Below, piece by piece: positions 24,935 through 60,297 of a stretch of DNA of 64,000 nt. Below the pieces are notes generated by a model. That model was not told the origin of the DNA, did not search any database, and saw only the letters and a list, made by a program, of their open reading frames with translations. Location: the NCBI GenBank assembly GCA_036279355.1, contig DASUJH010000028.1:133353-197352 (forward strand), in the 5' to 3' direction. Origin of the DNA: Gemmatimonadales bacterium (GTDB lineage Bacteria > Gemmatimonadota > Gemmatimonadetes > Gemmatimonadales > GWC2-71-9). The position numbers were made by a program, and so were the translations under genes. Positions within the stretch are counted from its first letter, which is position 1; each line of letters opens with the position of its first letter.

Positions 24935-25453
24935 ATGAACCAGCGTTCCGTGTCAATGCTTCATCCGGCCGAGTGGCTCGCCGTGCTACGCATCGTAGTC
25001 GGGCTTTACTTCGTGAAGTCGCTCGTGACGAAGATGTCGATCGTGCTCGCGGGCGGCGTGGTGCCGGTGCCGGCGGTGTCGGATCGATGGCTCACCGTCA
25101 TGCCCAAGATCGTGGCCAAGCAGGCGGCCGGCAATCCGATCCTGCCGTACAAGCACTTCCTCGAGCAGACGGTGATTCCGAACAGCCCCGTATTCGCGCG
25201 ACTCACCGCGTGGGGCGAAACGATCGCGGGCCTGGGCCTCACGCTCGGCCTCTTTACGCCGCTCGCGGCACTCGTCGGCATCGTGCTCGTGATCAACTAC
25301 GGGCTCGCAACCCAGTGGATGTCGGCGGGGCAGCAGGGATTCCACATCGTGCTGTTCGCGCTCATGATCGCTTTCATCTTTGCGCGAGCGGGGCGGCGCT
25401 GGGGGCTCGACGAAGTGCTCCTCGCGCGGCGGGAGCGGCGCCTCAATAATTGA
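24935..25453 (+). CDS. DoxX-family membrane protein
   Basis: 172 aa, 4 TM helices, with LRIVVGLYF and GETIAGLGLTLGLFTPLAAL patterns. Confidence 0.65.
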   Translation: MNQRSVSMLHPAEWLAVLRIVVGLYFVKSLVTKMSIVLAGGVVPVPAVSDRWLTVMPKIVAKQAAGNPILPYKHFLEQTVIPNSPVFARLTAWGETIAGLGLTLGLFTPLAALVGIVLVINYGLATQWMSAGQQGFHIVLFALMIAFIFARAGRRWGLDEVLLARRERRLNN

Positions 25454-25982
25454 TCTCGGTTTCCTTGCCCCCGATGAGCCGGGTGGCCACGCCTTCGATC
25501 TCGCAGTGGGCGTTGTGAGGAGAGTAGAGCAGACAGAAGATGCCGTCCGCCTTCCAGTGGTCCTGCCAGAGCTGCATCACGCCGCGATCGGCGCCCGAGA
25601 ACACCGGATAGGGTCGTGTATCAGGGCGGTGTGCAATGTGGGTGTGCACGGTCCCGAACCATTCCGGCGGTCCACAAGCCTCGATCGATTCCCCCGCCGA
25701 AATGTTGAGCGAATCGGCATGCGCGCCGTCGAGCAGCATGATGTGCGTGATGCGGGTGACGCTGTCGATCCGCTCGCCGGCCAGGCACGCGACGCGCTCC
25801 GCCTTGGCGGCGACACTCGCGTCCCAGAGATGGCGGAACGCCGCATCGGCGCTCGGCGTGAGCTCAAACACGAATGATGCCGCCGGGCGCGGCGTGGTTC
25901 GCCCGGGCGCGACCGGCAGGGACGGCTCGGCGGCGGCGGCGAGGGCAAAGGCGCCGGCTGCCGTCAGGATTGCGCGGAGCAT
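25443..25982 (-). CDS. exported hypothetical protein with JAB/MPN (JAMM)-like metal motif
   Basis: ORF 25443..26162 trimmed to the ATG at 25982 (MLRAILTAAGAFALAAAAEP signal), 5 nt after the upstream stop. HTHIAH...(x)...SGAD resembles the HxH...SxxD JAMM signature. Last gene of the xoxF1 transcription unit. Confidence 0.4.
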   Translation of the reverse strand: MLRAILTAAGAFALAAAAEPSLPVAPGRTTPRPAASFVFELTPSADAAFRHLWDASVAAKAERVACLAGERIDSVTRITHIMLLDGAHADSLNISAGESIEACGPPEWFGTVHTHIAHRPDTRPYPVFSGADRGVMQLWQDHWKADGIFCLLYSPHNAHCEIEGVATRLIGGKETEINY

Positions 25983-25987
25983 CTGCG

Positions 25988-27124
25988 TCAGGACGCCGGG
26001 GGTCCGCCCGGCGCGGGTGCGATCGCCACGCCCCAGGGCGACTGGCCTACCGGGATGCGCTCGGTAACCTTGAGCGATTCCGTATTGACCACGCTCACGT
26101 CGTTCGACGGGCCGTTGGCCGTGTAGAGCTCGGAGCCGTCCGGTGTGAGCGCAATGCCCCACGGCCGCTTGCCCACGGCCACCTTGCCCAGGACCTTGCG
26201 GGTATTTGCGTCGAGCACCACCACGTCACCGCCGCGGCCGGTCGAGACATAGACTTTCTTCCCGTCGTGGCTCACCACGACTCCCATCGGCTTGGCGCCG
26301 GCCGCGAACTTCACCGTATCGATCGATTGCCGCTTGGCGACGTCGATGACCCACACCGTGCCGTCGACTTCGCACGTCACGAACGCGAGCTTGCCGTCCG
26401 GCGTGAACGCGATGCCGCGGGGCCGCTTGCCGACCTCGATCGCGCCGAGCACCTTGCCGGTCGAGGCGTCGAGGATAGTCACGTTGTGCGCCGTCTCGCC
26501 GGTCACCCAGACGACCTTGCCGTCGGGCCGCACGCGGACTCCCTCCGGCTCCTTTCCGACCGGCACCGTCGAGAGCACCTTGCCGCTCGAAATGTCGACG
26601 ATAGACGCGGTGCCAGCATCCTCGTTGGAGACGAAGAGACGGGACCCGTCCTCTGAGACGTCGAAATTCTCTGGGTCCGAGCCGGCCGGAAGAATGCGCG
26701 TGACCTTGCGTGCCGCCGCGTCGACCACCGCCACGCCGTCCTTGCTCTTGTCCGCCTTGAGCTTCTCGCACTCGGCATCAGGCATCGTCGGCGGGCAACG
26801 GGGTGAGCCGCTGAGCGCGACGTAGATCGTGCGCCCGTCGTCGCTGGCTTTCACGCCGCGCGGGCGGGTGCCCACCGGAATCGTCGCCATAACCCTTGCC
26901 GTCCCCACGTCGATGACCGAGAGCGCCTCGGAGCCCTCGTTCGTCACGTACGCCACGGGGCCGGTCGTGACGAGTGGGGTCGTGTCGGCCGGGGTAGCCG
27001 CCGGGTCGCCGGCGGCCGCGCCCGAGGGTGGGGCATTGGAATTCTGCGCCAGATTGCGCGCGCTGTCGCCTGGCGCCGAACAGGCGGCGGCGAGGAAGAG
27101 CATCGCCAGCAAGCTATTTCGCAT
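25988..27124 (-). CDS. YVTN-repeat beta-propeller protein (PQQ-dependent-catabolism-associated type)
   Basis: Repeated about 40-aa units (YVTNEGSEALSVIDV, FVSNEDAGTASIVDI, WVTGETAHNVTILD, FVTCEVDGTVWVIDV, YVSTGRGGDVVVLD, YTANGPSNDVSVVN). Signal peptide from the ATG at 27124; TTG/ATG at 27160/27157 are alternative starts. Confidence 0.75.
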   Translation of the reverse strand: MRNSLLAMLFLAAACSAPGDSARNLAQNSNAPPSGAAAGDPAATPADTTPLVTTGPVAYVTNEGSEALSVIDVGTARVMATIPVGTRPRGVKASDDGRTIYVALSGSPRCPPTMPDAECEKLKADKSKDGVAVVDAAARKVTRILPAGSDPENFDVSEDGSRLFVSNEDAGTASIVDISSGKVLSTVPVGKEPEGVRVRPDGKVVWVTGETAHNVTILDASTGKVLGAIEVGKRPRGIAFTPDGKLAFVTCEVDGTVWVIDVAKRQSIDTVKFAAGAKPMGVVVSHDGKKVYVSTGRGGDVVVLDANTRKVLGKVAVGKRPWGIALTPDGSELYTANGPSNDVSVVNTESLKVTERIPVGQSPWGVAIAPAPGGPPAS

Positions 27125-28016
27125 CGAAGATCGCCTTGTCACGGTTGCGGGCCTCATCAAGGCCCTTGATCTCAGCCAGACCGGTGGCGTTCCGGAAGAT
27201 CGCGCCGTTGATGTCCGCCTTCGCGAAGTTCGCGCCGGCGAGATTGGCTCGCGTGAAGTCGGTCTGGATGAGATCGCTGTTACGGAGATCGGCGCCCACG
27301 AGCCGGGCGCCGGTGAGATCGGCGTATGAGAGATCGGCCTTGAAGAGATTGGCGCCCGACAGATCGGCGCTGCTCAGGTCCGCGCCGACGAACGTGGCCC
27401 GCATGACGCCCATCGATTGATTACCCGGATCGGCGCCGATGTTCGCATTGCGCAGATTCGCGCCGGCGAGATTCGCGTCCTTGAGATAGCCGATGATCCG
27501 CGCCTTCGACAGATTTGCTCCCCGGAAGTCGGCCTTCTCCACGATGGTGGCAAAGAGGCTCGCGCCCTCGAGGTTGGCGTCCCGGAAGTTGGCGCGGCGG
27601 AGCGTCGAGCCGTCGAGATTGGCGCCCTGGAGGTCGGCCCGCGTCAAGACGGCGCCGGTGAGATCGCACCCGAAGAGATTCGCCTTGACCAGTTTGGCGC
27701 GCACGAGTCGGGCGCCCGAGAGATTTGCTCTGTGAAAATCCAGCCCGCTCAGGTCGAGCGCGGTGAGGTCGGTGCCGGCCAGGTTGGCCGGCGCGCTCTC
27801 CGTCGCCGCGGCCAGCTTCGCCTTGACCTCTGGAACGGTGAGCGGCTTCGCCGGCTGCCGATCCGATGCACCCGCCGCGGGCGCGTCCTGGGCCGCTCCC
27901 GTCCGGGCCGCGCTCGCGAGGAGGATCGCGCTCAGAGCCCATGCGGTGAGCTGAACGGAGCGGGAGAGCGATGCCACGGGCGCCTCACGTCGAGGAAAAA
28001 AGAGCGACGGGACCAC
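27114..28016 (-). CDS. exported pentapeptide-repeat protein
   Basis: Signal peptide followed by about 40 A(D/N)LxG-type pentapeptides (ANLAGTDLTALDLSGLDFHRANLSGARLVRAKL...). Confidence 0.8.
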   Translation of the reverse strand: MVPSLFFPRREAPVASLSRSVQLTAWALSAILLASAARTGAAQDAPAAGASDRQPAKPLTVPEVKAKLAAATESAPANLAGTDLTALDLSGLDFHRANLSGARLVRAKLVKANLFGCDLTGAVLTRADLQGANLDGSTLRRANFRDANLEGASLFATIVEKADFRGANLSKARIIGYLKDANLAGANLRNANIGADPGNQSMGVMRATFVGADLSSADLSGANLFKADLSYADLTGARLVGADLRNSDLIQTDFTRANLAGANFAKADINGAIFRNATGLAEIKGLDEARNRDKAIFDAK

Positions 28017-28080
28017 CAGCGCTGGTGGCCCCGTCTCTCAAGTTACCCATGTCTTTCGACGTTGGCTACGATCGTACCGA

Positions 28081-29961
28081 CTACTGCTTGACCGCCGGTG
28101 ACTTGAGCGCGAACACGGTCAGCACGCCGCCCTGGTTGGAGAACTGACCGGCATCGCCGAACGCGCCCAGCGCGCCCAGGCCCGCCGTCGGGTCCTCGGC
28201 CCCAATGCCGGCCGCCACACCGATGCCCGCCCAGCCGCCGATGCCCGAAAGCACCGCGACGTACTGCTGGCCATCGGGACCCTGGTACGTCATCGGGTTG
28301 CCGATGATGCCGGACGGCGTCTTGTACTCCCAGAGGAGCTTGCCGCTCTTCTGATCGACCGCCTTGAGCCAGCCGTCCATGGTGCCGTAGAAGGCGAGAC
28401 CGCCGGCGGTGGTCAGCACGCCACCGTACGCCGCCAGGTTTTCCTTGTCTTCCCAGACCACCTTGCCTTGCATCGGATCCCACGCGATGAACCGACCGCG
28501 GTTACCGCCCGGGCCCGGGTACATCCGCACGATCGCGCCGACGTACGGCTGGCCGGCCGAGTACTTCACCTCGACGCCTTCATAATCCATGCAGATGTTG
28601 TTCGTCGGGACGTAGAAGTACCCCGTCAGCGGGGAGTAGGACGACGGCTGCTGGTCCTTGAAGCCGATCGCCGCGGGGCAGATGCCCTCGGTGTTGTGCT
28701 TCGAGGTCGTGCCGTACTTCGGGTCCTTGTGCGGAATGCCGGTCGAAAGGTCCACACCGGTTGCCCAGTTCACCGGGCCGTAGGGCTTGGCCACGATCAG
28801 CTTGCCGTTGGTGCGATCGATCGTGTAACCGAATCCGTTCCGGTCGAAGTGCGCGAGCAGCTTCTTCCCGTTCCGGTCGAACAGTACGTTCTCGTTGACG
28901 CCGTCATAGTCCCACTCGTCGTGCGGCGTCATCTGGTAGGCCCATTCCACCGTTCCGTCATCGGGGTGGCGCGCGAAGATGGTCATCGACCATTTGTTGT
29001 CGCCCGGCCGCTGATCGGGATTCCAGGTGCCCGGGTTGCCGGTGCTGATGTACACCAGGTCGAGCTGGGGGTCGTAGGAGTACCAGCCCCACGTGGTGCC
29101 GCCGCCGCGCTTCCACTCATCGCTGCCGTTCCAGGTGCTCACACCCAGGTCCTTGCCCTTGTGCGAGGCATAGTTCGCGTTGCCGACGCCATTCTGAATA
29201 CCGACCTCGGCATCGGGGCCGGTGCTGTACATGGTCCAGAGATGCTTGCCGCTGTTGGCGTCGAACGCCGAGACGCGGCCGCGGACGCCGAACTCACCGC
29301 CCGAGATGCCGGCGATCACGATTTCCTTGCCCGACTTGGTCTTGATGTAAATCGGGGCATTGGTCATCGTGGCGCCCTCCTTGTACCCCGTGGCTTCCGG
29401 CCCCGAGGGCGACGAAGCCGGGTGCTTCACCTTCCACAGCTCCTTGCCGGTCTTGGCGTCGAGCGCCAGGAGCTCACCCTCGAGCAGCTCGATGTAAAGC
29501 TTGCCGCTCGGGTTGTACGCCAGACCGCGGTTCACCAGGTCGCAGCAGGCGATTGGAATCGCGTCGGGCGACTGGTTGGGCACGTACTTCCAGATCTGCG
29601 GCGCGCCGGGCTTCGACAGGTCGAGCGCGTACACGATGTTGGGGAAGCTCGTCTGCACGTACATCACGTTCCCGACGACGAGCGGGTTGCCCTCGTGACC
29701 GCGGAGCGTGCCGGTCGAGAACGACCAGACGGGCCGAAGCTGGGCGATGTTTGACGTGGTGATCTGATTGAGGGGGCTGAAGCGGGTAAGGGCGTAGTCG
29801 CGCCCGGTCATCCACCACTCCCCCTTGGGAGCGTTCATTGTCCAGGCCCCGCCCGACCAGGACCCCTGCGGGACGTTCTGCGCGGCCACCGGGCTCGTTC
29901 CGAATGCCAGGAGGCACGCCATCAACCCGCCGACCGGCAGATAAGCCATCGATCGTTTCAT
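28081..29961 (-). CDS. xoxF: PQQ-dependent methanol/alcohol dehydrogenase, XoxF (lanthanide) type, paralog 1
   Basis: ORF 28081..30177 trimmed to the ATG at 29961 (MKRSMAYLPVGGLMACLLAFGTSPVAAQ signal; GAGG RBS). Vicinal disulfide IACCDLVNRG. The WDYDG motif carries the extra Asp that distinguishes XoxF from Ca-type MxaF (WDYAG). No mxaI small subunit nearby. Confidence 0.9.
   Translation of the reverse strand: MKRSMAYLPVGGLMACLLAFGTSPVAAQNVPQGSWSGGAWTMNAPKGEWWMTGRDYALTRFSPLNQITTSNIAQLRPVWSFSTGTLRGHEGNPLVVGNVMYVQTSFPNIVYALDLSKPGAPQIWKYVPNQSPDAIPIACCDLVNRGLAYNPSGKLYIELLEGELLALDAKTGKELWKVKHPASSPSGPEATGYKEGATMTNAPIYIKTKSGKEIVIAGISGGEFGVRGRVSAFDANSGKHLWTMYSTGPDAEVGIQNGVGNANYASHKGKDLGVSTWNGSDEWKRGGGTTWGWYSYDPQLDLVYISTGNPGTWNPDQRPGDNKWSMTIFARHPDDGTVEWAYQMTPHDEWDYDGVNENVLFDRNGKKLLAHFDRNGFGYTIDRTNGKLIVAKPYGPVNWATGVDLSTGIPHKDPKYGTTSKHNTEGICPAAIGFKDQQPSSYSPLTGYFYVPTNNICMDYEGVEVKYSAGQPYVGAIVRMYPGPGGNRGRFIAWDPMQGKVVWEDKENLAAYGGVLTTAGGLAFYGTMDGWLKAVDQKSGKLLWEYKTPSGIIGNPMTYQGPDGQQYVAVLSGIGGWAGIGVAAGIGAEDPTAGLGALGAFGDAGQFSNQGGVLTVFALKSPAVKQ
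28154..28254. repeat. 101-nt block perfectly identical to 32058..32158 (xoxF paralog pair)
   Basis: Direct comparison of the two 3' coding regions. The surrounding sequence matches at most positions. Confidence 0.85.
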
Positions 29962-30297
29962 TGCTGTTGACCTCACATGTGACGGTATCGTGGACGGTAT
30001 GCGGCTGCCAAACCGGCTGATTGCGGGCTGGCGGCCGGAAGGGTGCATCCCGTCGATAGGCGGTCCGCCTGGCGGGGTGCAAATACGTGGGGCGGGCGGG
30101 CTGCGGGGCAGCAAAGAGTGCCGGAGGGGGTGGGGGGTACACCCCATCCAGCCAACTATATGGGCACGCGCAAACATAGGCCTGCGTCGCTTTCTGACCT
30201 GAACTATGGGCCCTAATGTCCGACGCGCCGCACCACGGGACCGTGATCTGCATCACATCGCTCGGTCAATCGCGCGCTACCGACCCCCGAACGCGAC

Positions 30298-30324
30298 GAG
30301 GGGCCGCTCCAAGAGCGGCCCCTC
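30298..30324 (-). terminator. strong GC hairpin downstream of xoxG (likely end of the xoxF2-xoxJ-xoxG transcript)
   Basis: Perfect 12-bp inverted repeat GAGGGGCCGCTC-caa-GAGCGGCCCCTC, 66 nt after the xoxG stop. No clear U-tract. Confidence 0.5.
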
Positions 30325-30389
30325 GTTCGGTTCATCGCAAGCCGGCGGAGTTCCGGCACCGGCAGCGACAGGCGCCCCGGCGAAGCGCG

Positions 30390-30833
30390 TCAGGCGCCTG
30401 ACTTCACGGCCGGCCTTCCGATGTGGATCTTGCCGTCCGCGCGACCCTTGAGATACGCGTAGATGTTGTTGATCTTCTCCGGCTCGAGTCCGAGCGCGCA
30501 CCAGGAGGGCATCCCCTTGGCTGGCCGGCCGGCACACACGGTGGCTACGAAGATGGCCTTGGTGGGGATCGGCCCGTCGTCCTTGAGCGAATTCACCAGC
30601 GCCGGCGCGAACGAGCTGCCCACACCGTATTCCCCATGGCAGCGCGCGCAATTGAGCTCGAACTGCTTCCAGCCCTGATACGCCTCCACCGAAATCGTAT
30701 CGAGCGGCTGGGGATGGTACTTGTCGTGTACTTCCTGGGCATGCGCCGCCCGGGCGCCGCCGACCACAAAGAGGACGGCGACGGCCATGGCGCCCAGCAA
30801 TCGGGCGAGCGGCGAGGTCCGGGGAGTGCTCAT
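30390..30833 (-). CDS. xoxG: c-type cytochrome, methanol-metabolism-associated (XoxG-like electron acceptor)
   Basis: 147 aa with a signal peptide and a single CARCH heme site. Positioned after xoxJ in the xoxF cluster. Confidence 0.75.
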   Translation of the reverse strand: MSTPRTSPLARLLGAMAVAVLFVVGGARAAHAQEVHDKYHPQPLDTISVEAYQGWKQFELNCARCHGEYGVGSSFAPALVNSLKDDGPIPTKAIFVATVCAGRPAKGMPSWCALGLEPEKINNIYAYLKGRADGKIHIGRPAVKSGA

Positions 30834-30892
30834 CTCACGGTCAGTCCTTTCAGAGGAAAAGAGCCAGGGTTATGGGCTCGACCACCCATGCG

Positions 30893-31819
30893 TCAGAACG
30901 CGCCGGCGTGTCCCGACTTGCCCGGGGCGGCCGTCGTATCGCCGATCGCGCCGGTTCGGGTGGTGGTAGAATCCGCCGGGATCGGAAGCATCGGCACCTT
31001 GTACTGTTGCAGGATGGCTTCGATCTCGGGGCGGTCGTGGTCTATGAGCGTCTGCACGCTGTCGCGAAACTCGCGATCCTTGCGGCGCGTGGCCATGGTG
31101 ATACTGAAGGCGAACGGGATCCCGGTGGTGCTGTCGTCCGGGATTGGGTGAAGGACCAGTGGCACCGGCGCCTTGGCCGCGAAGTAGCCGGCGACGGGTC
31201 CCCAGACGATCGCGAGGTCGATCTTCTTGTCAGCCACGGCGTTGATGATGTCTTCCGGCCGGTGGATCTCACTAAAAAAGGTGGGGAACCCGACGAGGCC
31301 GACCACGCCGTGCGACTTGAGCGCAGCGGCAGGGGGGGCGGCATCGCCATCGCTCCCAATCATGTTTACGCCGATCCTCAGCCGCTTGAGCGCCGGATCG
31401 TCGAGCGAGGTGATGTTGAGACCGCTGTCCTTTCGGTACACGAAGAAGTAGGTCGAGCGGAAGTATGGCTTGGTCGTGGCCGCGATGTCGAGCCCGGCAG
31501 GTGCGGTCACAATCAGGTCGCAGTAGCCCCCATTAAGGCCGCGCCCGAAGTAGCCAAAGCGAACGGGCCACCACACGTACTCAAGGCGCGAATTCCACTT
31601 CTCCGCGATGTATTCGGCGATCTTGTTCTCGAAGCCCTCGCCCTTCTGGTTGGACTCCGGCATGTTATCGGGATCGGCACACACGCGAAGGACGCCCGGT
31701 GTCAGCGGTCCGGGGCGGAGGTCGGTCTCCTCCTGGGCGCCGGCAGTGCCGGCGCCTACGATCAATGCGGCCGCCGCGACGCCGCCCAGGGCCCCGATCC
31801 GACGCAGCATCGGTGACAT
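30893..31819 (-). CDS. xoxJ: quinoprotein-dehydrogenase-associated periplasmic substrate-binding protein (XoxJ/MxaJ-like)
   Basis: ORF 30893..31843; several starts are possible (31843 TTG; 31831, 31819, 31810 ATG). Signal peptide followed by LRVCADPDNMPESNQKGEGFENKIAEYIA, typical of the MoxJ family. Confidence 0.75.
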   Translation of the reverse strand: MSPMLRRIGALGGVAAAALIVGAGTAGAQEETDLRPGPLTPGVLRVCADPDNMPESNQKGEGFENKIAEYIAEKWNSRLEYVWWPVRFGYFGRGLNGGYCDLIVTAPAGLDIAATTKPYFRSTYFFVYRKDSGLNITSLDDPALKRLRIGVNMIGSDGDAAPPAAALKSHGVVGLVGFPTFFSEIHRPEDIINAVADKKIDLAIVWGPVAGYFAAKAPVPLVLHPIPDDSTTGIPFAFSITMATRRKDREFRDSVQTLIDHDRPEIEAILQQYKVPMLPIPADSTTTRTGAIGDTTAAPGKSGHAGAF

Positions 31820-33820: not shown

Positions 33821-33863
33821 AACTGACCTCAGGATGAAGGGTGATTCTCCTGCTGTACAGCAC

Positions 33864-33955
33864 CTACGTGGTGTTGCGTTGCCCTGCGTGGTGGTGCGCT
33901 GTGGGTGGTGCACTGCGTGAAGCGTGCTGCGTGAAGCGTGCTGCGGTGGAGCGCT
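33864..33955. repeat. array of about six imperfect 14-15-nt direct repeats (CTGCGTGGTGGTGCG-like) in the xoxF2 leader
   Basis: Units: ctacgtggtgttgcg.., ctgcgtggtggtgcg, ctgtgggtggtgca, ctgcgtgaagcgtg (x2, exact, 33913-33940), ctgcggtggagcgct. Lies 45-135 nt upstream of the xoxF2 ATG. Confidence 0.7.
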
Positions 33956-34299
33956 CTGCCGCCTCGACTCGGTGCGGCGCGGGTACCCCGGAAACCCGCG
34001 CCCACCTGCCGGGGCCCTTACGACCGAGCAGCCGGAGTTCTCCGCTCGATCACCGGCCCCGCCGCGCGGCCTCGGGGGCCGGGCCACAAACTCGGGTACG
34101 CGGGCATGGAACCGGTTGGATGCATGCCTCGCTGGAGGCATGACATTGATGTACGCCTAAAAGGGCCGTTGCGCCAGACCGGCCGCACGGGAAACCCGCG
34201 ATCACACCTTTGGTCAAACCGCCGCCCACGTCTGACGATGAGGGGAAAGACGACCTCGGGTACTCCGGCTTCTACATGTTTATGCGGACTTGGGGCTCC

Positions 34300-49955: not shown

Positions 49956-49960
49956 CCGGC

Positions 49961-52580: not shown

Positions 52581-53524
52581 GATGCCGGCGCGGACGGCGA
52601 AGATGCAGCCGGCGACTCCGCCGCAGGCGCCTCGCCGCCCATGATCGCGCGCAGATGGAAGTGGTATGGACCGAGCTTGCCGCCGTAGTTGCCCGCGCTG
52701 ATCGCGACCACGCCCTCGCGGCAGGCCGCGTCGATGCCGGCGCGCATCGCCCGGCTGATCGCCGGCGCGTCGAGGCCGTTGATGACGATTTCAAGGACCG
52801 AATTGACGCCCTCGGGCAGCGCCGTTTGCGTGACGGCGCGGAGCGTAGGGCAATACGCGTCGTTGGTCGAGGCGATCATCGTCTTCGAGCGGCGCGCGCC
52901 GACCTTGCTGCCGCTCCGTACGACGCCCCCGGGGAAGGGAAGGATCACGCCCGGCATGCCGTGCATCGCGTCGACCGCGGCCTCGGCGGCCGCGAGCGCG
53001 GCGCCGTCCGAGCGAGCGAGCATGAGGAAGTTGCCGCCGCCTACGGCCTTCTGCATCCCGAACTTTTCCTGCACCAGGAACTCGCCTTCCATCACGGGAA
53101 TGCGCCAGAAGCGCTCGCCGCCGATCACCTTGCTCATCTGGAATCCGTCGCCGAAGTATCTGAGCGACGAACCGACGCCGATTCGGTCGGGTGCATCGGG
53201 CAGGCCGTCGTAGCAGGCGGTCGTGGGACAGGTGAGCACCGTCTGGCCGATGCGCTCGATCAGCCGCTTGGGCAGGTCGTCCTTGCCCATCGTCATCATG
53301 AGCACGCTTACGCCGGGCCGGCCATCCGGCGTATCGCTTGAGCCGAGCTCGCGCTCGATGGCCGCTTCGACCTTGCAGCCGATGACCGACGTGGCGAAGC
53401 CGGTGAGTTTGAGCGCCGCCGCGCTCACCCAGCGCGCGCTCGCGCCGGTGATGATGATCCGCGCCGCGCGCACGGTGAACGCCTCGGCGAAGGTGTCCTC
53501 GATCAACACGCCGCGGACATTCAC
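52577..53524 (-). CDS. fhcD: formylmethanofuran--tetrahydromethanopterin N-formyltransferase
   Basis: Real part of fused ORF 52577..54586. The GTG at 53524 overlaps the fhcA stop (GTGA). IEDTFAEAF ... GGGNFLMLA ... NDAYCPTL. Confidence 0.9.
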   Translation of the reverse strand: MNVRGVLIEDTFAEAFTVRAARIIITGASARWVSAAALKLTGFATSVIGCKVEAAIERELGSSDTPDGRPGVSVLMMTMGKDDLPKRLIERIGQTVLTCPTTACYDGLPDAPDRIGVGSSLRYFGDGFQMSKVIGGERFWRIPVMEGEFLVQEKFGMQKAVGGGNFLMLARSDGAALAAAEAAVDAMHGMPGVILPFPGGVVRSGSKVGARRSKTMIASTNDAYCPTLRAVTQTALPEGVNSVLEIVINGLDAPAISRAMRAGIDAACREGVVAISAGNYGGKLGPYHFHLRAIMGGEAPAAESPAASSPSAPAS

Positions 53525-55179
53525 TGGCGGGTCTCCACGGGGGCGCCGGGCACGTCGCGCACCGGGTAGTTGTCGAACGAGACCGTGGAGTACGCATCGA
53601 AGTGGCGCCGGATGTCGCGCAGCACCGCCGAGTCGTAAGCCGGACGGACGAAAAGCCGCCGGCCCTCGGGCGCGCGGCGGAGCTGGCCCTCCTCCACCAC
53701 CACGCGGCCTGCCTTCACGACGTAGCGCGGGGTCGAGAACATGCGCGCGATGTCGGGCTCGCGTTGGTAGACGGTGGCGTCTCCGTCCGCGCCGACGCCC
53801 AGGTGTCCCTTGCTCGCGAGCCCGAGCAGGCGGGCCGGCCCGGCGCGGGTCACGATGGCGATCTCGTTCAGCGTGTACTCGCGCGCCAGCCCATCGGCCA
53901 GCGCGCTCCCGGCCAGCAGCTTCTGGTTCACCCGCGCGAGCTGCTCGTCGCGGGCCGAGCGGTCCATGAGAAGTTGAATGAGGCGGGGATATGAGAGAAA
54001 TGAACCGCCATTGGGGTGATCGGTCGAAAGCACCACGCGCCACGGGTCCCGCGAGAGCAGGAAGAGCTCGAGCCCGATGGCCCACTGCAACGCGGAGACG
54101 GCGGCCTTCTCCTTGTAGGAGTAGGGGACGATGCCGCAGCCCGTCTCCAGCTCGACATCGATGTTGACCCACTTCCGCCCGCTGCTTGCGTGGAGCAGGT
54201 ACTCGACCGGGCTGTCGGCGGTGAGTGTGGTGGCGGCGCCGAACATCGCCTGGCCCACGTCGGTGCTCACCTCGGGGTGGTCGTTCACATACTCGACGAC
54301 GCGGGACGCCGCCGAACCCCACGGCCCCTTGCCGAATTCGCCGCCGTAGCAATGGAACTGGAGGTGAGTGAAGTGCGCCCGCCGCCCGGCCAACGCCTCC
54401 ATGGTGGCGAGCGTGGTGGCGCTGTTGCCGGGCTGGCCCAGGTTGTTGCAGTGGATGTGCACCGGGTGCGGAAGCCCGAGCACATTCGCCGCATCCACCA
54501 ACGTCTCGAGGATGGCGCGCGGCGTCACCCGGCTGGTGCCGAGCGCCTGGTCCAGGTCCGTGAGATTGCGCTGGCCCGACTTCCACGCCTCGATGCCGCC
54601 CGGGTTCACGACCTTGATCGCGTAGGCGCCGACCGCGCCGAGCAGCCAGGCGGCGTAGTCGCGCGCGCGGTCGCGCTCGCCGGCATCGATCTGGCGCAGC
54701 AGGTATTCGTCGTTACCCATGAGCGCGTAGAGGCCCGCGTCCACGATCGGCGTGTCGTCGAGCTCGTGGTGGCTGTGGCGCGCCGTGAGCGGAGCCACCG
54801 CCGCGTCGAACGCCGTGGTGTAGCCGAGCCCGGCGTACCGGTAGGCGGTGGTGAAGGTGGTCGGCAGCGTGCCGCCGGTGCCCGAGCGGGCCGGACCATC
54901 CCCGGGCGCGATCGGCGGCGCTGGCGCCGGTTCGGCCGCGTGCTCCTCGGGCAGGAGCCGCCTCGCGTGGTTGCACGCCGAGCTGGCAAAGTGCGCGTGG
55001 ATGTCGACGCCGCCCGGCATCACGACCATGCCGCGCGCGTCGATCGAGGGCGCGTCGGCGGGAAGACTCGCCACGACGCGGCCGTTCTCGACGCAGACGT
55101 CGCGGACCTCGCCGTCCACGCCGTTGGTCGGATCGTGCACGGCGCCACCCCGGATGCGAAGGCGCTCGGGCGGGGTCAT
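53521..55179 (-). CDS. fhcA: formyltransferase/hydrolase complex subunit A (formylmethanofuran dehydrogenase subunit A homolog, amidohydrolase fold)
   Basis: 552 aa with the metal-binding motif PGGVDIHAHF and typical length. Confidence 0.9.
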   Translation of the reverse strand: MTPPERLRIRGGAVHDPTNGVDGEVRDVCVENGRVVASLPADAPSIDARGMVVMPGGVDIHAHFASSACNHARRLLPEEHAAEPAPAPPIAPGDGPARSGTGGTLPTTFTTAYRYAGLGYTTAFDAAVAPLTARHSHHELDDTPIVDAGLYALMGNDEYLLRQIDAGERDRARDYAAWLLGAVGAYAIKVVNPGGIEAWKSGQRNLTDLDQALGTSRVTPRAILETLVDAANVLGLPHPVHIHCNNLGQPGNSATTLATMEALAGRRAHFTHLQFHCYGGEFGKGPWGSAASRVVEYVNDHPEVSTDVGQAMFGAATTLTADSPVEYLLHASSGRKWVNIDVELETGCGIVPYSYKEKAAVSALQWAIGLELFLLSRDPWRVVLSTDHPNGGSFLSYPRLIQLLMDRSARDEQLARVNQKLLAGSALADGLAREYTLNEIAIVTRAGPARLLGLASKGHLGVGADGDATVYQREPDIARMFSTPRYVVKAGRVVVEEGQLRRAPEGRRLFVRPAYDSAVLRDIRRHFDAYSTVSFDNYPVRDVPGAPVETRQ

Positions 55180-56471
55180 CGTGCGCCTGCGGGGGCCCCG
55201 CGATTCGCGGCGCTTGCCGCGACGGCCGCCGCAATCTCGTCGAGCACCGTCCCAGCGGACACGGGCCCCGGAAGCACCGCCGCCAGCGGCAGGGGGACGT
55301 CGTCCATGCGGTAGCCGGTGCCGCCTTCGTGGATCCCGGCGACGCCGGTGTCGATCGCCACTTCGGCGGCGAACGGCGCCTCGCTCGCCCGCGGGCCGAC
55401 GACGGCCGTCGGCACCCTTGCGAGCATGCGTGCCACGGCGTCCGGCAGGAGACCCGCCGCGCCGACCACAAGTGCGGCCGCAATGGCCCCGGCCAGCGTG
55501 CTCGCGGGTTCGTCGGCGCGATAGCGCGGGTAGCCGGCGTCGAAATCCACGGCGAACGGATATCCCGTCTGCCAGATGAGCGTGGCATCGGCGCCCGACC
55601 GATTACCCCCCGCCCTGAGGCTGCTGAGGGTGCAGCGGGTCGGCCCGTTCAGCGCCTGCGCCAGGCCGATAAGTCCCTCGGCCCGCTCCGGCGAATGTCC
55701 CGCGGCCTGCGGCTCTGCGTCGTGCACGATGGCGACGTAACGCATAGCGGCCAGGCGGCGGACCAGTTCCGCCGCCGCGGCGAGCCCGGCATCGAGGCCG
55801 CCGAGCGCGCGCCCGAGCAGGGCGGCGCGCATGACACCGAGCGCGGCGATCTCCTTGTCCGGCGCGAGCGTGAGGCGCGCCTCGGCGTCCGCCGGGCCGC
55901 GCGCGCTGCCCACATCTGCCGCGATCACGAGGCGTCCCGCGCGCCCGCCCGGCACCTGCGTGCCAACCGGGTCGAGTGCGTAGCGCGACAGATAGCGCGG
56001 ATAGCGTTCCGCCGGATCGACGGCCCAGAACAGCAGGCAGTCGGCGCGGTTCCGGATCTCGCCCAGCGTCGACGTCGCGCGCCCACGGCACTGCCCGGCG
56101 AGTATGCCCGCCGCCGCGGTGTCGCTGGTGACACTGTCGAGCCGCCCGCCCACGCGATCGGCCAGTGCGATGGCCCGGCGCTGCGCGGCGGTCGAGATGT
56201 CCGGCGCGAGATAGACGAGCACCGGACGGTCCGCGTGCAACAGCTCGGCGATGCGCGACACGGCGTCAGGGCGCGAAGCGGCGGCGCCGCGCAGGAGCAC
56301 GCGACCGGGCACCCGCCCATCACCGAACCAGCGGAGGCCGAGCGGGCAGGCGTTCCGCGCTTCAACGATGTGCTCGCTCCCATCGGCGGCGACCGAGACG
56401 TCGATGTCGTCGCAGGCGCAGCCGCATCCGAGGCAGGTGGCATGCGCCACTTCGCGCACAGGCGCCGTCAT
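55176..56471 (-). CDS. fhcB: formyltransferase/hydrolase complex subunit B (formylmethanofuran dehydrogenase subunit B homolog)
   Basis: ORF 55176..56789 trimmed to the ATG at 56471 (ATGA overlap with the upstream stop). N-terminal Cys cluster CLGCGCACDD. Confidence 0.85.
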   Translation of the reverse strand: MTAPVREVAHATCLGCGCACDDIDVSVAADGSEHIVEARNACPLGLRWFGDGRVPGRVLLRGAAASRPDAVSRIAELLHADRPVLVYLAPDISTAAQRRAIALADRVGGRLDSVTSDTAAAGILAGQCRGRATSTLGEIRNRADCLLFWAVDPAERYPRYLSRYALDPVGTQVPGGRAGRLVIAADVGSARGPADAEARLTLAPDKEIAALGVMRAALLGRALGGLDAGLAAAAELVRRLAAMRYVAIVHDAEPQAAGHSPERAEGLIGLAQALNGPTRCTLSSLRAGGNRSGADATLIWQTGYPFAVDFDAGYPRYRADEPASTLAGAIAAALVVGAAGLLPDAVARMLARVPTAVVGPRASEAPFAAEVAIDTGVAGIHEGGTGYRMDDVPLPLAAVLPGPVSAGTVLDEIAAAVAASAANRGAPAGAR

Positions 56472-57718
56472 GCGACGCTCCGCCGCATGCGCCCGCCGCG
56501 CCGCGTGTCGCCGCCTGCACGCATCTGGGCGGCGCGCACCGCAGCGGCCCGGCGCACGAGTCGGCCGCGACACGACTCCGCATCGGCGCCCTGCGCGAAC
56601 ACGGTACAGATCGGCTCGCCGGCGCCGATACGCTCGCCGGGATGCGGCACGTCGCGCACCGAGCCGTCGCGCAGCCACCGCCGCATGGGTCGGGCGACCA
56701 TCCCCTCCTCCGCGAACACGACTGCCTTGCCGAACGTGTGCGCGAGCGGACGCAGGTAGGGATTCGTCGCGGGCAGCGTTCCCGCGCATGCCGCCGCGTG
56801 CAGCGCGAAGAGCGAGACGCCATGCGCCCGCTCCACCAGCTCCATCGACGCGGCGTAGCGCGGGTTCACCTCGACCGGCCAGGGAATACCGCCGCGCGCC
56901 ACGAAATCGATCCCGTTCAATCCCACCACGCCAAACTCCTCGGCCACCGCCTGCGCGAGTGCCAGCGCGGCCCGCGCCAGCCGATCCTGTTCGTCGAACA
57001 GCGGCACCGGGCCGCCCGCGAGCAGACTACCGCAATAACGAAATCCAGCCACGCCGAACGCGCGATCCCCGATGAGCTGGATCGAGAGGCCGAGCGGCAC
57101 CGCGCGCCGCCCGTCGGCGACGAACGAGATGGAGCCGGGCTGGCCGTCGATCCAGGCCTGCAGGTACGCGGCGCGCGTGAGCGGCATTCCCGGCGCCCAC
57201 GTCGTGATCCCGTGGCCACCGCCGGAGCGGCGCGGTTTCCGGAGCCACATCAAGGACCCGGTTGTCGTGCGCACCGCCCCGGCGCGGACGGCCGAGGCGC
57301 GCACCGCCGGCACCTCGAAACCGCGGGCCCGGAGCGCGCGCGCGACGAGCAACGGATCGCGGACCCGCGCCAGCACGGCGGGCCCGTTTCCGAGCAGCGT
57401 GCGGCCGGCGGCGAGGCGCTCGAGGGCGGCAGGGTGATTCTCGATGTTCGACACGTACGCCGCCGCAGCTGCATCGAGCCGTTCGGCGGCCTCGGCTGCC
57501 GCGTCGGCGCTGTAGCGGAGCCCAAGATCACGGCGGAGTGCCACGGCGTGGGCGCACGTCGCGAGATCGACGTCGCCGTACGCGTCCACCGCCGCCACTC
57601 TGAGCCCCGCCATAGCAGCCGACTCCGCCAGCGCGCGCGCCGACACGCCCGCAATCACCACGTCAAAGGCCTGTGCGCCACTCACGGCGCCGGCCGCATC
57701 GCCCAGCGCCCGCCTCAT
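56468..57718 (-). CDS. ATP-grasp domain protein of the H4MPT/methanofuran cluster (MfnD-like candidate)
   Basis: 416 aa. The WLRKPRRSGGGHGI ... VGLNGIDFV ... EVNPR pattern fits an ATP-grasp fold. Functional assignment is tentative. Confidence 0.65.
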   Translation of the reverse strand: MRRALGDAAGAVSGAQAFDVVIAGVSARALAESAAMAGLRVAAVDAYGDVDLATCAHAVALRRDLGLRYSADAAAEAAERLDAAAAAYVSNIENHPAALERLAAGRTLLGNGPAVLARVRDPLLVARALRARGFEVPAVRASAVRAGAVRTTTGSLMWLRKPRRSGGGHGITTWAPGMPLTRAAYLQAWIDGQPGSISFVADGRRAVPLGLSIQLIGDRAFGVAGFRYCGSLLAGGPVPLFDEQDRLARAALALAQAVAEEFGVVGLNGIDFVARGGIPWPVEVNPRYAASMELVERAHGVSLFALHAAACAGTLPATNPYLRPLAHTFGKAVVFAEEGMVARPMRRWLRDGSVRDVPHPGERIGAGEPICTVFAQGADAESCRGRLVRRAAAVRAAQMRAGGDTRRGGRMRRSVA

Positions 57719-58770
57719 GCGCTGCCTGCGAGCCCGAGCCTCGAGCGGGCCTGCTCGGGCGAGATGACGAAGAGATGGTCGAGCACCGTGCCGTGAGCCT
57801 CCCGAATACCGAGCCGCTCCATCAATCGTGCGTGGCTCCCGCCGCCCAGCCCGTCGGCGAGGATTGCCGCGCCCTGCGCGCCCTGCTTGGCCCGCGCGGC
57901 GAAGCCCGCGAGCCGCCGCACCGGAAGGCGTGCCACGAGGCGATCGGCGAGTGCCGCACGAAGGGCCGGGTCCTCCGCCACGCGCCCGGAGAGCAGCACC
58001 TCGCGCGCCTCGGGCGCGGAGACGTTGAGCCGCGCGACGGCCTTTGCCGCGCCTTCGAGCAGCGCCTCAACTGCCGTGTCTCGCAGCAGCGGGTTTGCCT
58101 CAATCATGGTGCGCACTCCACCGCGGAAGAGCATCGCCTTGCTCACCTCTCCCGCCAGAAAGGCGACCTCACCGTCGAGCGCGCCGGCTGCCTGCCAGCC
58201 CAGCGGCCCGCTTGTGCCCCCGATGCCGTCCACGATTTGCCCGCGCTCCACTGCGACTGCGGCCGTGAACGCGCCGCCCAGCTCGAGCAGAATGAACGAT
58301 GCCGCGTCCGGCGCCGCGAGTTCGCGCTGCATCTGATCGGCGATCCCGAGCGCCGCCGCGCAGACCTTGTCCGCCGTGCCCAGATCCACCCGATTGAGCT
58401 TCCGGTGCGCCGGCACGGTGTCGAGGTGCACGACCCCCGGCAGAAAGACAAGCGGCAGGCGGAGCTCGGTGAGCCGCCGCACCAGCCGCCGCAGCCCGCC
58501 GATGCCGCCCGCCTCACCCGGCGGCGCGAGGAACGCGAGGCGCCACTCCGCGTCGCTCGCGTCGGCGGCCCGGACGAGCGGGAGACCGTATCCCGAGGGG
58601 CCGGCGATGAGATCGGGTTCGCCGGCGGTGCGCAGGTATGCGGCGAACGCATCCGGGTCTGCCAGCGCCTCGGCCGTGGGCCACGCACGGTCGAGCGTGA
58701 GCCGGCCATCGTCGAGGCCGCACACGTCGATTGAAACCGTGCCGGGGTCGATGCCGATGACCCGCGGCAT
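57715..58770 (-). CDS. DUF1464-like ASKHA-fold protein (H4MPT-cluster associated)
   Basis: N-terminal VIGIDPGTVSIDVCG phosphate-1 motif. 351 aa, ATGA-coupled downstream. Family call made from memory. Confidence 0.55.
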   Translation of the reverse strand: MPRVIGIDPGTVSIDVCGLDDGRLTLDRAWPTAEALADPDAFAAYLRTAGEPDLIAGPSGYGLPLVRAADASDAEWRLAFLAPPGEAGGIGGLRRLVRRLTELRLPLVFLPGVVHLDTVPAHRKLNRVDLGTADKVCAAALGIADQMQRELAAPDAASFILLELGGAFTAAVAVERGQIVDGIGGTSGPLGWQAAGALDGEVAFLAGEVSKAMLFRGGVRTMIEANPLLRDTAVEALLEGAAKAVARLNVSAPEAREVLLSGRVAEDPALRAALADRLVARLPVRRLAGFAARAKQGAQGAAILADGLGGGSHARLMERLGIREAHGTVLDHLFVISPEQARSRLGLAGSA

Positions 58771-58776
58771 CGGCGC

Positions 58777-59652
58777 TCAGTCCTCGTTCCGGGCCACCAG
58801 CTCGCGCGCCACCTTGAAAATCGCCTCGGCGTCGAGCACGAGATCGTTTCGCTCGAACAGCTTGACGATGCACGCCTTGTGGAGCTTGGTCTTGAAGTTG
58901 CCTATGCCGAAAGCGCCGAACACCTTCACCCCGTCGCGCTCGACGCCGGCATCTTCGAGCTCGACGCCCTCGATGCCGAGCGGCGGCACGGCGTTGAGGT
59001 CCACGGCGATCGTGAGGCCTTTCCGGTTGGCCCACGCCGCCCTCGGAACCATGAGCACCCCGGCCGGCCCCGAGTTGAGCAGGATGTCCGCGTCCTCGAG
59101 CACCTCGGCCGCGTGCGAGGCGTCGGACATGCCGACGATGTCGACGTGGACTTGAAATCGCTCCTGGATGGAGCGGCGCGCCTTCTCGCCCTGCTCGGGC
59201 CTGCGCGAGGTGATCGTGACGTCGGCGCCGTCCTTGGCAAGGAGGCCCGCCGCGCGCTGCCCCACGGGGCCGGTGCCGGCCAGGATGACGACGCGCTTGC
59301 CGCGCACATCGCCCACCGCCTGCTCGATGCGCACCACCGCCGCCACCGCGGTGGTGTTCGAGCCGTTGGAGTCGAGCATGACGGAGACCCGGTACGACTC
59401 GAACATCGCGTCGAGCGCCATCGCGAGCAGTTGTTCGCCCGCCGCCATGTTGCTGCCGCCGATCCAGATGGCCGTGTTCTTGAGGTCCCGCGGACCGCGC
59501 GTGAAGATGCAGCCGTGCACCAGGTCACGCACGTCGGTGTCGGTGACGCCGCCGTAGCTCAAGATCACGTCGGCTGCGGCGTCGTAGGCCACCACCTGAT
59601 CGAACACGCTCGGCAACCGGGAGCTGTCGAGCTGCAGCAAGAGCTTGCGCAT
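58777..59652 (-). CDS. mtdB: NAD(P)-dependent methylene-tetrahydromethanopterin dehydrogenase
   Basis: 291 aa. LLQLDSS...PSVFD ... Rossmann motif VVILAGTGPVGQRAA ... GIGNFKTKLH pattern of MtdA/MtdB. A versus B subtype is not resolved. Confidence 0.85.
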   Translation of the reverse strand: MRKLLLQLDSSRLPSVFDQVVAYDAAADVILSYGGVTDTDVRDLVHGCIFTRGPRDLKNTAIWIGGSNMAAGEQLLAMALDAMFESYRVSVMLDSNGSNTTAVAAVVRIEQAVGDVRGKRVVILAGTGPVGQRAAGLLAKDGADVTITSRRPEQGEKARRSIQERFQVHVDIVGMSDASHAAEVLEDADILLNSGPAGVLMVPRAAWANRKGLTIAVDLNAVPPLGIEGVELEDAGVERDGVKVFGAFGIGNFKTKLHKACIVKLFERNDLVLDAEAIFKVARELVARNED

Positions 59653-59722
59653 CGCGGGCGATCACTCCTCTCGGGTCGACGGGACACGCGCGGCGCACCC
59701 GGCGGCGGTGGCGTCGTAAGCA

Positions 59723-59754
59723 ACGAGGGGCGCCCGCGGCGGGCCGCCCCTCGT
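59723..59754 (-). terminator. GC-rich hairpin between fae and mtdB (attenuator/partial terminator)
   Basis: 10-bp stem ACGAGGGGCG / CGCCCCTCGT enclosing an inner CCCG/CGGG stem. On the sense (minus) strand it is followed by TTGCTT. Lies 31 nt after the fae stop. Confidence 0.45.
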
Positions 59755-59784
59755 CGAATCTCGAACCTGCGTAGCGGCGGACGA

Positions 59785-60297
59785 TCAGCCCTCGGCGCCG
59801 CTCGCGAACGGATGCCGCGCGCTCTTGTACTTGGAGAGCACCTCGTCCACCGACGGCTTGCCGGCGAGCGCGCGCTGGATCGACTCCTTCACCGCCTGAT
59901 AGTTGTAGTCGTAGATCTTCTTGTCGTCGTCGGCCTGCCAGTGGATGAACACGCCGACCAGGATGCAGTAGTCGTTGGCCTTGTCCTTCGGAATGACGCC
60001 CGAATCGACGCTGTCCATCACCGCCCGGGCGACCGCGGCCTGCGCCGGCCCGAACATCTGCACCGCCTGCTTGGCGCCCTTGATGGTGACCTTGTTGAAG
60101 AGCACCGTGTCGGGCTTGCAGGGGAGGTTCGGGGTCACCACGGCGAGCAGGGTGGTGAAGCCATCGGTGTTGCGCGAGAGGGCCTGGGTGAAGGCGGCGC
60201 CCAGGGGCCCCGACTTCGACCCGATCATCAGGTCGATGTGGGCGACTTCATTGCCCCCGCCGACGAGGGACTCGCCAATGAAGAAATCCGCGGCCAT
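59785..60297 (-). CDS. fae: formaldehyde-activating enzyme
   Basis: ORF 59785..60564 trimmed to the ATG at 60297 (GGAGG 5 nt upstream), 170 aa. [47 protein letters not shown] and HPFA motifs. Confidence 0.9.

Follow-up and report, generated by a model that had tools for sequence, protein, structure and literature searches.

The question raised by the locus described here is whether a 35-kb block of one-carbon (C1) genes is an unusual and possibly acquired compact island, as the first-pass annotation of this DNA had proposed, or belongs to the lineage in which it is found. The block occupies 25.4-60.3 kb of a 64,000-nucleotide stretch of Gemmatimonadales DNA (contig DASUJH010000028.1 of assembly GCA_036279355.1, positions 133,353 to 197,352), which is called the window below. 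It joins genes for XoxF-type methanol oxidation to genes for formaldehyde oxidation by way of tetrahydromethanopterin (H4MPT) and methylofuran, and to genes for the synthesis of these cofactors. Gene families, gene order and base composition together argue against an acquired island and for a methanol-oxidation module that is native to an uncultured soil Gemmatimonadales bacterium and was inherited vertically, a reading to which we assign a probability of roughly 0.88.

Because the GC content of the window is about 70%, raw lists of open reading frames (ORFs) are full of spurious frames; gene calling used a codon-usage model whose training set was the obvious long genes. NCBIfam and Pfam scans covered all called genes at 21.7-64 kb and nearly the whole left flank of the window, which encodes functions unrelated to C1 metabolism. 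Almost every gene named in the first-pass annotation at 25.4-60.3 kb is borne out by these calls and scans, and the functional reading that it had given, XoxF methanol oxidation beside H4MPT/methylofuran formaldehyde oxidation and cofactor genes, is supported family by family. The genes that it had left unnamed encode an EthD lipoprotein, a short-chain dehydrogenase (SDR), a pterin-4a-carbinolamine dehydratase (PCD), and HAMP-GAF-GGDEF-EAL, SWIM, pentapeptide-repeat, beta-propeller and 179-residue proteins.

The first step, oxidation of methanol, is assigned to the products of four genes, with pyrroloquinoline quinone (PQQ) as the predicted cofactor of the dehydrogenases.

32006-33820, minus strand: xoxF-b, predicted XoxF-type lanthanide/PQQ methanol dehydrogenase, 604 residues (TIGR03075, 654 bits; cutoff 480)
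30893-31810, minus strand: XoxJ-like periplasmic binding protein (TIGR03871, 251 bits; cutoff 212)
30390-30800, minus strand: small monohaem c-type cytochrome, 136 residues, in the xoxG position (Pfam Cytochrome_CBB3; CARCH haem motif; signal peptide)
28081-29949, minus strand: xoxF-a, second copy of the predicted XoxF-type PQQ methanol dehydrogenase, 622 residues (TIGR03075, 641 bits; cutoff 480)

The two xoxF genes and xoxJ, which had been named from the start, all score above their family cutoffs. The DEWDYDG motif, found at residues 344 and 333 of the two XoxF copies, contains the extra aspartate that marks lanthanide enzymes, and vicinal cysteines are present at residues 135 and 130. MxaF has DYA at the position where the lanthanide enzymes show DYD, and alignment with the XoxF1 structure 6OC5 gives the same DYD motif as in the window proteins. 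The best PDB matches of xoxF-b are the XoxF structures 6OC5, 4MAE and 6DAM (E 1e-208 to 5e-200), whereas MxaF is matched at 1e-181 or weaker and PedH at 1e-101, with PedH and ExaA far behind; in this ranking of PDB E-values the window proteins are closer to XoxF than to the MxaF or ExaF/PedH types. On these features of their sequences, both copies are XoxF-type lanthanide-dependent PQQ methanol dehydrogenases, their activity being predicted. The gene that had been called xoxG keeps that name by operon position and loses it by family membership (TIGR03874, 44 bits; cutoff 162); although it falls outside TIGR03874, the 136-residue cytochrome probably works like XoxG, as its place in the operon suggests. 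Signal peptides are found on the XoxF proteins and on the small cytochrome.

The two XoxF proteins are 87.7% identical to each other. The duplicated DNA (87% identity) comprises only the mature coding part (28105-29853 and 32009-33739), and the signal peptides and upstream regions differ between the copies. Relatives carry a single xoxF; since the single copy of the nearest relative (L009) is 82-85% identical to both window copies, the duplication is specific to this lineage.

The enzymes that would oxidise formaldehyde are encoded at the other end of the block, in a run of 13 genes on the minus strand.

59785-60348, minus strand: fae, formaldehyde-activating enzyme (TIGR03126, 248 bits; cutoff 118), with a likely start at 60297 because the TIGR03126 alignment begins at residue 23 of this long call
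58777-59652, minus strand: mtd, Mtd-family methylene-H4MPT dehydrogenase (PF09176 Mpt_N; 272 bits to Methylorubrum extorquens MtdA structures)
57715-58770, minus strand: DUF1464 protein (PF07318, 287 bits; no PDB relative)
56468-57718, minus strand: ATP-grasp_3 ligase, MfnD/Orf1-like or MyfA-like (PF02655; no NCBIfam match)
51753-56459, minus strand: formyltransferase/hydrolase complex, fhcB (55176-56459), fhcA (53521-55179), fhcD (52577-53524) and fhcC (51753-52580)
50806-51771, minus strand: mch, methenyl-H4MPT cyclohydrolase (TIGR03120, 408 bits; cutoff 229)
49961-50761, minus strand: exported tandem-EthD lipoprotein (TIGR02118 and PF07110, two domains each; lipobox)
49062-49955, minus strand: RimK-family alpha-L-glutamate ligase, MptN/MyfB-like (TIGR00768, 208 bits, above cutoff; NF040720 (MptN), 251 bits, cutoff 350; PF08443)
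48214-49065, minus strand: CitG-like protein, Orf7 type (PF01874, 241 bits)
47694-48197, minus strand: PTPS-family protein (PF01242; TIGR00039 and TIGR03367 below cutoff)

The calls of fae, mch and fhcCDAB stand at equivalog level (TIGR03122, TIGR03119 and TIGR03121 for fhcC, fhcD and fhcA), except that of FhcB, which scores 233 bits against the TIGR03129 cutoff of 328, is matched over its full length by FwdB/FhcB structures (E 3e-45) and lies in the fhc operon. An exact-match look-up with FhcA returned no entry. What had been labelled mtdB is a member of the Mtd family, as the Mpt_N domain and the 272-bit match to MtdA structures show, the MtdB subtype label being positional only. The genes from mtd to PTPS had also been described as mostly joined by 4-nucleotide overlaps; such overlaps (ATGA or GTGA) are found at 5 of the 11 junctions, and the others are one overlap of 19 nucleotides and five gaps of 5-44 nucleotides.

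Between these two regions lie genes for the cofactors, the larger group of which forms a tightly packed minus-strand operon that runs from 40694 to 34325 and ends just upstream of xoxF-b.

39933-40694, minus strand: SDR, first gene of the H4MPT operon (adh_short_C2)
39540-39902, minus strand: PCD (NF002017, 92 bits; cutoff 80; PF01329)
38083-39567, minus strand: DHPS-like pterin-binding protein of the MJ0301/TIGR00284 type (TIGR00284, 203 bits; Pfam DUF6513, Pterin_bind and PterinBD-DUF4346)
35877-38086, minus strand: pabB (36596-38086) and pabA (35877-36599) (TIGR00553 and TIGR00566, above cutoff)
35311-35880, minus strand: DUF447 protein (PF04289 and PF20766; PDB matches are structural-genomics entries only)
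34325-35278, minus strand: mptG, beta-ribofuranosylaminobenzene 5'-phosphate synthase (TIGR00144, 175 bits; cutoff 113.5)

The genes that had been attributed to H4MPT biosynthesis (mptG and the DHPS-like, PTPS, CitG-like, HisA/F-like, DUF447 and DUF1464 genes), together with pabAB, are likewise supported by NCBIfam or Pfam. Candidates for methylofuran synthesis occupy the interval between the H4MPT operon and the fae-to-PTPS run.

46906-47721, plus strand: Orf17-like HisA/HisF-family protein (PF00977, 110 bits)
45859-46884, minus strand: MfnF-like hydantoinase_A-fold protein, Orf9 type (TIGR03123, 297 bits; cutoff 244; PF01968), its start at 46884 being taken from the gene call in a public contig of the same organism (L158)
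45269-45862, minus strand: MfnE-like amino-acid-kinase-fold protein, Orf21 type (NF040622, 70 bits, below cutoff; PF00696)
40807-41556, plus strand: mfnB, 4-(hydroxymethyl)-2-furancarboxaldehyde-phosphate synthase, Orf22 type (PF04476, 190 bits; NCBIfam below cutoff)

Apart from the Orf17-like gene, these candidates are among those previously proposed, and the families PF04476, PF00696, TIGR03123 and PF02655 support mfnB, the MfnE-like and MfnF-like genes and the ATP-grasp gene. Orf22, Orf21 and Orf9 correspond to MfnB, MfnE and MfnF, and the polyglutamate tail that methylofuran carries is lengthened by the RimK-like Orf5 (MyfB) and by OrfY (MyfA) (Hemmann et al., 2021). The RimK-family gene of the window had been placed under H4MPT biosynthesis as RimK/MptN-like; the family call holds (TIGR00768), and the placement is less likely than one in methylofuran synthesis, by analogy with which its product is more likely to be a methylofuran glutamate ligase.

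The HisA/F-like gene is real, being matched by PF00977 and kept in relatives, where it lies on the opposite strand between the PTPS and MfnF genes in 58 related loci. It matters because M. extorquens cannot make methylofuran without Orf17, its member of this family (Hemmann et al., 2021). Its start is about 21 nucleotides from the divergent start of the MfnF-like gene, and its 3' end overlaps the 3' end of the PTPS gene by 28 nucleotides. At this place the codon-usage caller chooses the antisense frame over the Orf17-like gene; the 105-residue gene so called (47320-47637, minus strand) is an antisense shadow that is ruled out by the genes of L158, where a His_biosynth gene stands between those for PTPS and the hydantoinase-fold protein, by Pfam and by the relatives.

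The established functions of these families, which we infer to apply here, would be arranged as follows. The two periplasmic XoxF enzymes, with lanthanide and PQQ, would oxidise methanol and pass electrons to the small c-type cytochrome, with the XoxJ-like binding protein as an accessory. In the cytoplasm, Fae would condense formaldehyde with H4MPT, the Mtd enzyme would convert methylene-H4MPT to methenyl-H4MPT, Mch would convert the latter to formyl-H4MPT, and FhcABCD would transfer the formyl group to methylofuran and release formate. H4MPT would be supplied by pabAB, mptG and the DHPS-like, PTPS, CitG-like, DUF447 and DUF1464 genes, and methylofuran by mfnB, the MfnE-like, MfnF-like and Orf17-like genes and the two ATP-grasp glutamate ligases. 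Oxidation or assimilation of formate and synthesis of PQQ must be encoded elsewhere in the genome.

Several points weigh against this reading. Genes for assimilation or formate oxidation are found nowhere in the 64 kb, so that growth on methanol cannot be inferred from the window alone. No family of the known dihydromethanopterin reductases (DmrA, which is dihydrofolate reductase-like, or the flavoprotein AfpA/DmrB) occurs among the called genes of the 64 kb, and MfnA and MfnC are not found within the window either; the cofactor set had been described as complete, which is too strong. MptG, the DHPS-like protein, MfnB/Orf22, MfnE/Orf21, MfnF/Orf9, Orf17 and the glutamate ligases are all present, with MfnB, MfnE and MptN recognised at Pfam level or below cutoff only, and FhcB and the xoxG-like cytochrome are also below their equivalog cutoffs. 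Gene spacing suggests about seven transcription units, the operon structure being drawn from tight or overlapping junctions; these units are based on spacing and consensus scans only.

The first of these points could also indicate a module for detoxifying formaldehyde or co-oxidising alcohols, and not for methylotrophic energy or carbon supply, with XoxF perhaps acting mainly on other alcohols or aldehydes. Assimilation, formate dehydrogenase and PQQ genes are indeed lacking within the window (the earlier list of absences holds, since mxaFI, pqq, lanmodulin, TonB-receptor and formate dehydrogenase genes are not among its called genes, and lanthanide-uptake genes are not found in the 64 kb), and H4MPT pathways are also present in non-methylotrophs (Chistoserdova, 2016). 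The window enzymes are, nevertheless, far closer to XoxF than to the PedH/ExaA ethanol dehydrogenases (E 1e-208 against 1e-101), and related metagenome-assembled genomes (MAGs) carry serine-cycle and PQQ genes elsewhere, the XoxF of Gemmatimonadetes ranking at or near the top of the soil proteins in abundance (Butterfield et al., 2016). In addition, a Gemmatimonadales MAG has been obtained from soil DNA enriched with 13C-methanol, where cross-feeding is possible. A role confined to detoxification or co-oxidation is, on balance, improbable, and methanol oxidation is retained as the predicted function of the module.

Whether the module is native can be judged from its relatives. A scan for MptG in one genome per GTDB species yielded 77 loci (45 labelled as Gemmatimonad and 32 others), a further 80 soil-metagenome loci were retrieved with Mch, and the window proteins were mapped onto both sets. 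The best relatives of the window MptG, at 60-66% identity, are all MAGs of Gemmatimonadales or Gemmatimonadota, and the next matches are from Vicinamibacterales and other Acidobacteriota, followed by one Acidimicrobiia and two Isosphaeraceae MAGs. The loci reveal a standard Gemmatimonadales order, which begins with fae, mtd, DUF1464, ATP-grasp, fhcBADC, mch, (EthD), RimK, CitG and PTPS, continues with Orf17 on the opposite strand, MfnF, MfnE, (mfnB), SDR, PCD, DHPS-like, pabB, pabA, DUF447 and mptG, and ends with xoxF, xoxJ, cytochrome, pentapeptide-repeat and beta-propeller genes, with DoxD, oligopeptidase B-like and pfk genes on the other strand. The last three, which flank the module, are also conserved in the relatives. 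In 36 of the 45 Gemmatimonad-labelled loci, xoxF comes directly after mptG, most of the remainder being cut by contig ends; the same holds for none of the 32 others. The order from the SDR gene to the cytochrome gene is intact in 24 of the Gemmatimonad-labelled species representatives, and that from fae to mch is complete in 20 of the 32 metagenome loci that span 9 kb or more, most of the others being truncated.

Composition points in the same direction. GC at third codon positions (GC3) of the C1 genes is 0.80-0.93, as in the flanks, and it is codon positions 1 and 2 that lower the total GC in the xox region. No tRNA is found in the window, and no integrase or transposase family in any scan of its called genes. 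Because the order and the housekeeping flanks are conserved, the GC3 is native, and tRNA, integrase and transposase are absent, the block is ancestral and vertically inherited within Gemmatimonadales and not a recent acquisition.

The opposite reading, in which the 35 kb are a horizontally acquired genomic island that was recently inserted, might appeal to a patch of lower GC beside fae, which had been noticed at the outset and is real.

About 60484-63641, no strand: low-GC3 insertion of about 3.2 kb that lies outside the C1 module and is lacking in the closest relative (L085)
60556/60841-61653, plus strand: PARG-like macro-domain protein within the patch (Pfam)
61676-62188, minus strand: SnoaL-like protein within the patch (Pfam)

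Only about 170 bp separate the fae region of L085 from its homologue of the gene at 63659. The patch has a GC content of 0.63-0.65 (GC3 of the PARG-like ORF, 0.70) and also holds unassigned ORFs; no mobility gene and no flanking direct or inverted repeats are found at 60484-63641. This patch alone looks foreign, and it holds no C1 gene, whereas dozens of Gemmatimonadales species show this gene order between identical housekeeping flanks, and the C1 genes themselves have native GC3 and are accompanied by no tRNA and no integrase or transposase family. Recent acquisition is therefore very improbable and largely refuted. The idea of an unusual island is not supported, since close relatives commonly have exactly this arrangement and it has already been described.

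A different matter is the deeper history of the H4MPT operon. When the MptG, DHPS-like and DUF447 sequences are concatenated, a rough neighbour-joining tree without support values puts the window inside the Gemmatimonadales clade. The same tree places the acidobacterial H4MPT cofactor operons (loci L018-L073) as one clade that branches among Gemmatimonadota lineages, and this position of the Vicinamibacterales operon leaves some room, on the side of acquisition, for an ancient transfer between phyla. MptG identity to the window is 54-62% in Acidobacteriota, not much lower than the 60-66% within Gemmatimonadales. There are thus hints of an old transfer of the H4MPT operon between Acidobacteriota and Gemmatimonadota, as far as such sequence comparisons allow. 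In the Acidimicrobiia locus (L072, 600-10950), most genes of the H4MPT operon align in several frame-shifted pieces, which look like assembly indel errors rather than pseudogenes.

The native module contains no known dihydromethanopterin reductase, and it is therefore of interest that the H4MPT operon begins with an SDR gene and a PCD gene. The order SDR-PCD-DHPS-like is found in 57 of 64 loci, and in 24 of 28 outside Gemmatimonadota; these loci span Gemmatimonadota, Acidobacteriota and one Acidimicrobiia MAG. In an Isosphaeraceae (Planctomycetota) locus (L075, SDR at 1119-1841), the SDR gene adjoins the DHPS-like, DUF447 and mptG genes, and PCD is lacking. No protein of the operon is better conserved than PCD (70-90% identity among relatives), and the canonical catalytic motif is visible in the window protein. 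PCD together with an SDR-type dihydropteridine reductase is the standard pterin-recycling pair, as with dihydropteridine reductase/FolM in biopterin metabolism. Because of this precedent, it is reasonable to suppose, by analogy, that SDR and PCD could constitute a third, non-homologous system for reduction of dihydromethanopterin to H4MPT or for recycling of oxidised H4MPT, although we regard this as a tentative proposal that is rather doubtful at present. Two lineages of dihydromethanopterin reductase are recognised, and Planctomycetes are reported to have neither Afp nor DmrA. Some Proteobacteria, like Planctomycetes, do not possess Afp, and the DmrA of Methylobacterium is a non-homologous substitute (Chistoserdova, 2016). 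In the PDB, the SDR matches generic FabG-like enzymes only, which speaks neither for nor against a pteridine-reductase role, and in the literature we found no paper that links dihydromethanopterin reductase with a short-chain dehydrogenase or proposes this role for an SDR.

The tandem-EthD protein is another conserved member of the module. It is 100% identical to an NCBI protein named 'EthD family reductase' from a Gemmatimonadales MAG. The window shares the tandem form with its closest subclade; most other relatives have a single-domain form (136-146 residues, with a lipobox), for example at the same place in L109 (10986-11399) and L085 (10988-11428). A gene with an EthD domain follows mch in 26 of the 32 metagenome loci, and most Gemmatimonadales clusters keep the lipoprotein gene between mch and that of the RimK-type ligase. 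No match is found in the acidobacterial loci that carry fae and mtd, and a comparison with the PDB returns uncharacterised structures or no match.

The remaining features in and around the block are as follows.

60469-60497, minus strand: sigma-70-like promoter match upstream of fae (TTGACA-17-CATACT; consensus match only)
44950-45255, plus strand: small SWIM zinc-finger protein (PF04434; also called as a gene in L158)
41733-44831, plus strand: HAMP-GAF-GGDEF-EAL cyclic di-GMP signalling protein, not a C1 enzyme (family scans)
34300-34328, minus strand: sigma-70-like near-consensus promoter about 480 nucleotides upstream of xoxF-b (TTGACA-17-TATAGT; consensus match only)
28006-28035, minus strand: intrinsic-terminator-like hairpin, 13-bp stem and T tract, just after xoxF-a (sequence scan)
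27114-27977, minus strand: pentapeptide-repeat protein (NCBIfam pentapeptide-repeat families; same position in relatives)
25988-27112, minus strand: PQQ-dehydrogenase-associated beta-propeller protein (TIGR03866, 275 bits, slightly short of the 287-bit cutoff; kept downstream of Gemmatimonadales xox)
25443-25982, minus strand: conserved hypothetical protein of 179 residues with a signal-peptide-like N-terminus, which closes the gene run downstream of xox (no NCBIfam or Pfam match)

mfnB is divergent from the H4MPT operon and is followed by the GGDEF-EAL gene and then by the small SWIM gene; the GGDEF-EAL gene stands beside mfnB only in the closest subclade (L009, L080, L085, L087, L091 and L128). 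The xox unit is bracketed by the promoter-like site (34328-34300) and the terminator-like hairpin (28035-28006), which are consensus matches only. Long untranslated leaders precede both dehydrogenase genes, of about 500 nucleotides for xoxF-b (33821-34324) and about 440 nucleotides for xoxF-a (29950-30389); the two leaders are mutually unrelated, and relatives share no block beyond about 25 nucleotides ahead of the start codon. An Rfam scan detects no RNA element inside the 35-kb C1 region. Homologues of the 179-residue protein (44-51% identity) occupy the same position in L004, L009, L060 and L071; its HTH...SGAD (HxH...SxxD) motif recalls JAB/MPN metalloenzymes, and one or two copies end the run downstream of xox in several relatives. 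Elsewhere in the window, a fluoride riboswitch (Rfam RF01734, 51 bits; 13373-13438, plus strand) lies directly upstream of a Na+/H+-exchanger-family gene (13510-14685, plus strand), and crcB and DUF190 genes (16930-17349 and 17362-17751, minus strand) are found on the opposite strand at a distance of about 3 kb.

The window thus adds a further, well-assembled instance of the gene set of predicted, uncultured methanol-oxidising Gemmatimonadales, which are abundant in soils and in one proteomic study showed very high expression of XoxF. It leaves unchanged what is known of the organisation and spread of methylotrophy modules. Its use is as an annotation template for the clade, which has value because callers can miss the opposite-strand Orf17 gene, and it highlights three conserved unassigned genes, those of the SDR, PCD and EthD lipoprotein.

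Among known systems, that of M. extorquens resembles the window in that a single region holds fhcABCD, mch, fae and H4MPT genes as well as Orf9/MfnF, Orf21/MfnE, Orf22/MfnB, Orf17 and the Myf ligases. In M. extorquens, about 25 locus tags separate xoxF (META1_1740) from mch (1763), myfB (1764) and fae (1766). The earlier contrast with alphaproteobacteria, in which these functions had been described as spread over several clusters, is accordingly overstated, because the M. extorquens genes form one 'archaeal-like' cluster with xoxF near by. The two systems differ in that the window has no DmrA, the H4MPT operon being led instead by SDR and PCD, in that the EthD lipoprotein gene lies inside the fhc-mch operon of the window, and in their low sequence identities, with about half of the aligned residues matching MtdA, for example. 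We know of no counterpart of the EthD lipoprotein in proteobacterial clusters. The order of the xox genes is also different, xoxF-xoxJ-cytochrome in the window and xoxF-xoxG-xoxJ in proteobacteria.

The operons of Vicinamibacterales and other Acidobacteriota share with the window the series MfnE-like, SDR, PCD, DHPS-like, (pabBA), DUF447 and mptG, at 54-85% identity. Unlike in the window, fae and mtd directly follow mptG in some of these loci (L041, L056), and xoxF is adjacent in none of the 32 loci from outside Gemmatimonadota.

The closest known counterpart is found in soil Gemmatimonadetes genomes that encode a XoxF-type methanol dehydrogenase with the lanthanide aspartate and the entire H4MPT pathway of formaldehyde oxidation, the genes for making H4MPT standing immediately upstream of xoxF (Butterfield et al., 2016, PeerJ 4:e2687); the legend to Fig. 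S3 of that paper names fae, mtdB, fhc, mch and xoxF as parts of a single contig. The window is like that contig in belonging to Gemmatimonadales, in having H4MPT biosynthesis upstream of xoxF and in having fae, mtd, fhc and mch near by. Two of the related loci (L011 and L062) have the same gene order as the window, and from their names (13_1_40CM and 13_1_20CM MAGs) they are presumably MAGs of that study. Compared with them, the window has as extras the second xoxF, the tandem EthD and the 3.2-kb insertion by fae, together with the GGDEF-EAL/mfnB insert that is common only to the closest subclade, and protein identities are about 45-80%. Because its layout recurs in dozens of relatives and was published for the group in 2016, the locus is ordinary for its lineage: it is an already published type of soil Gemmatimonadales methylotrophy locus.

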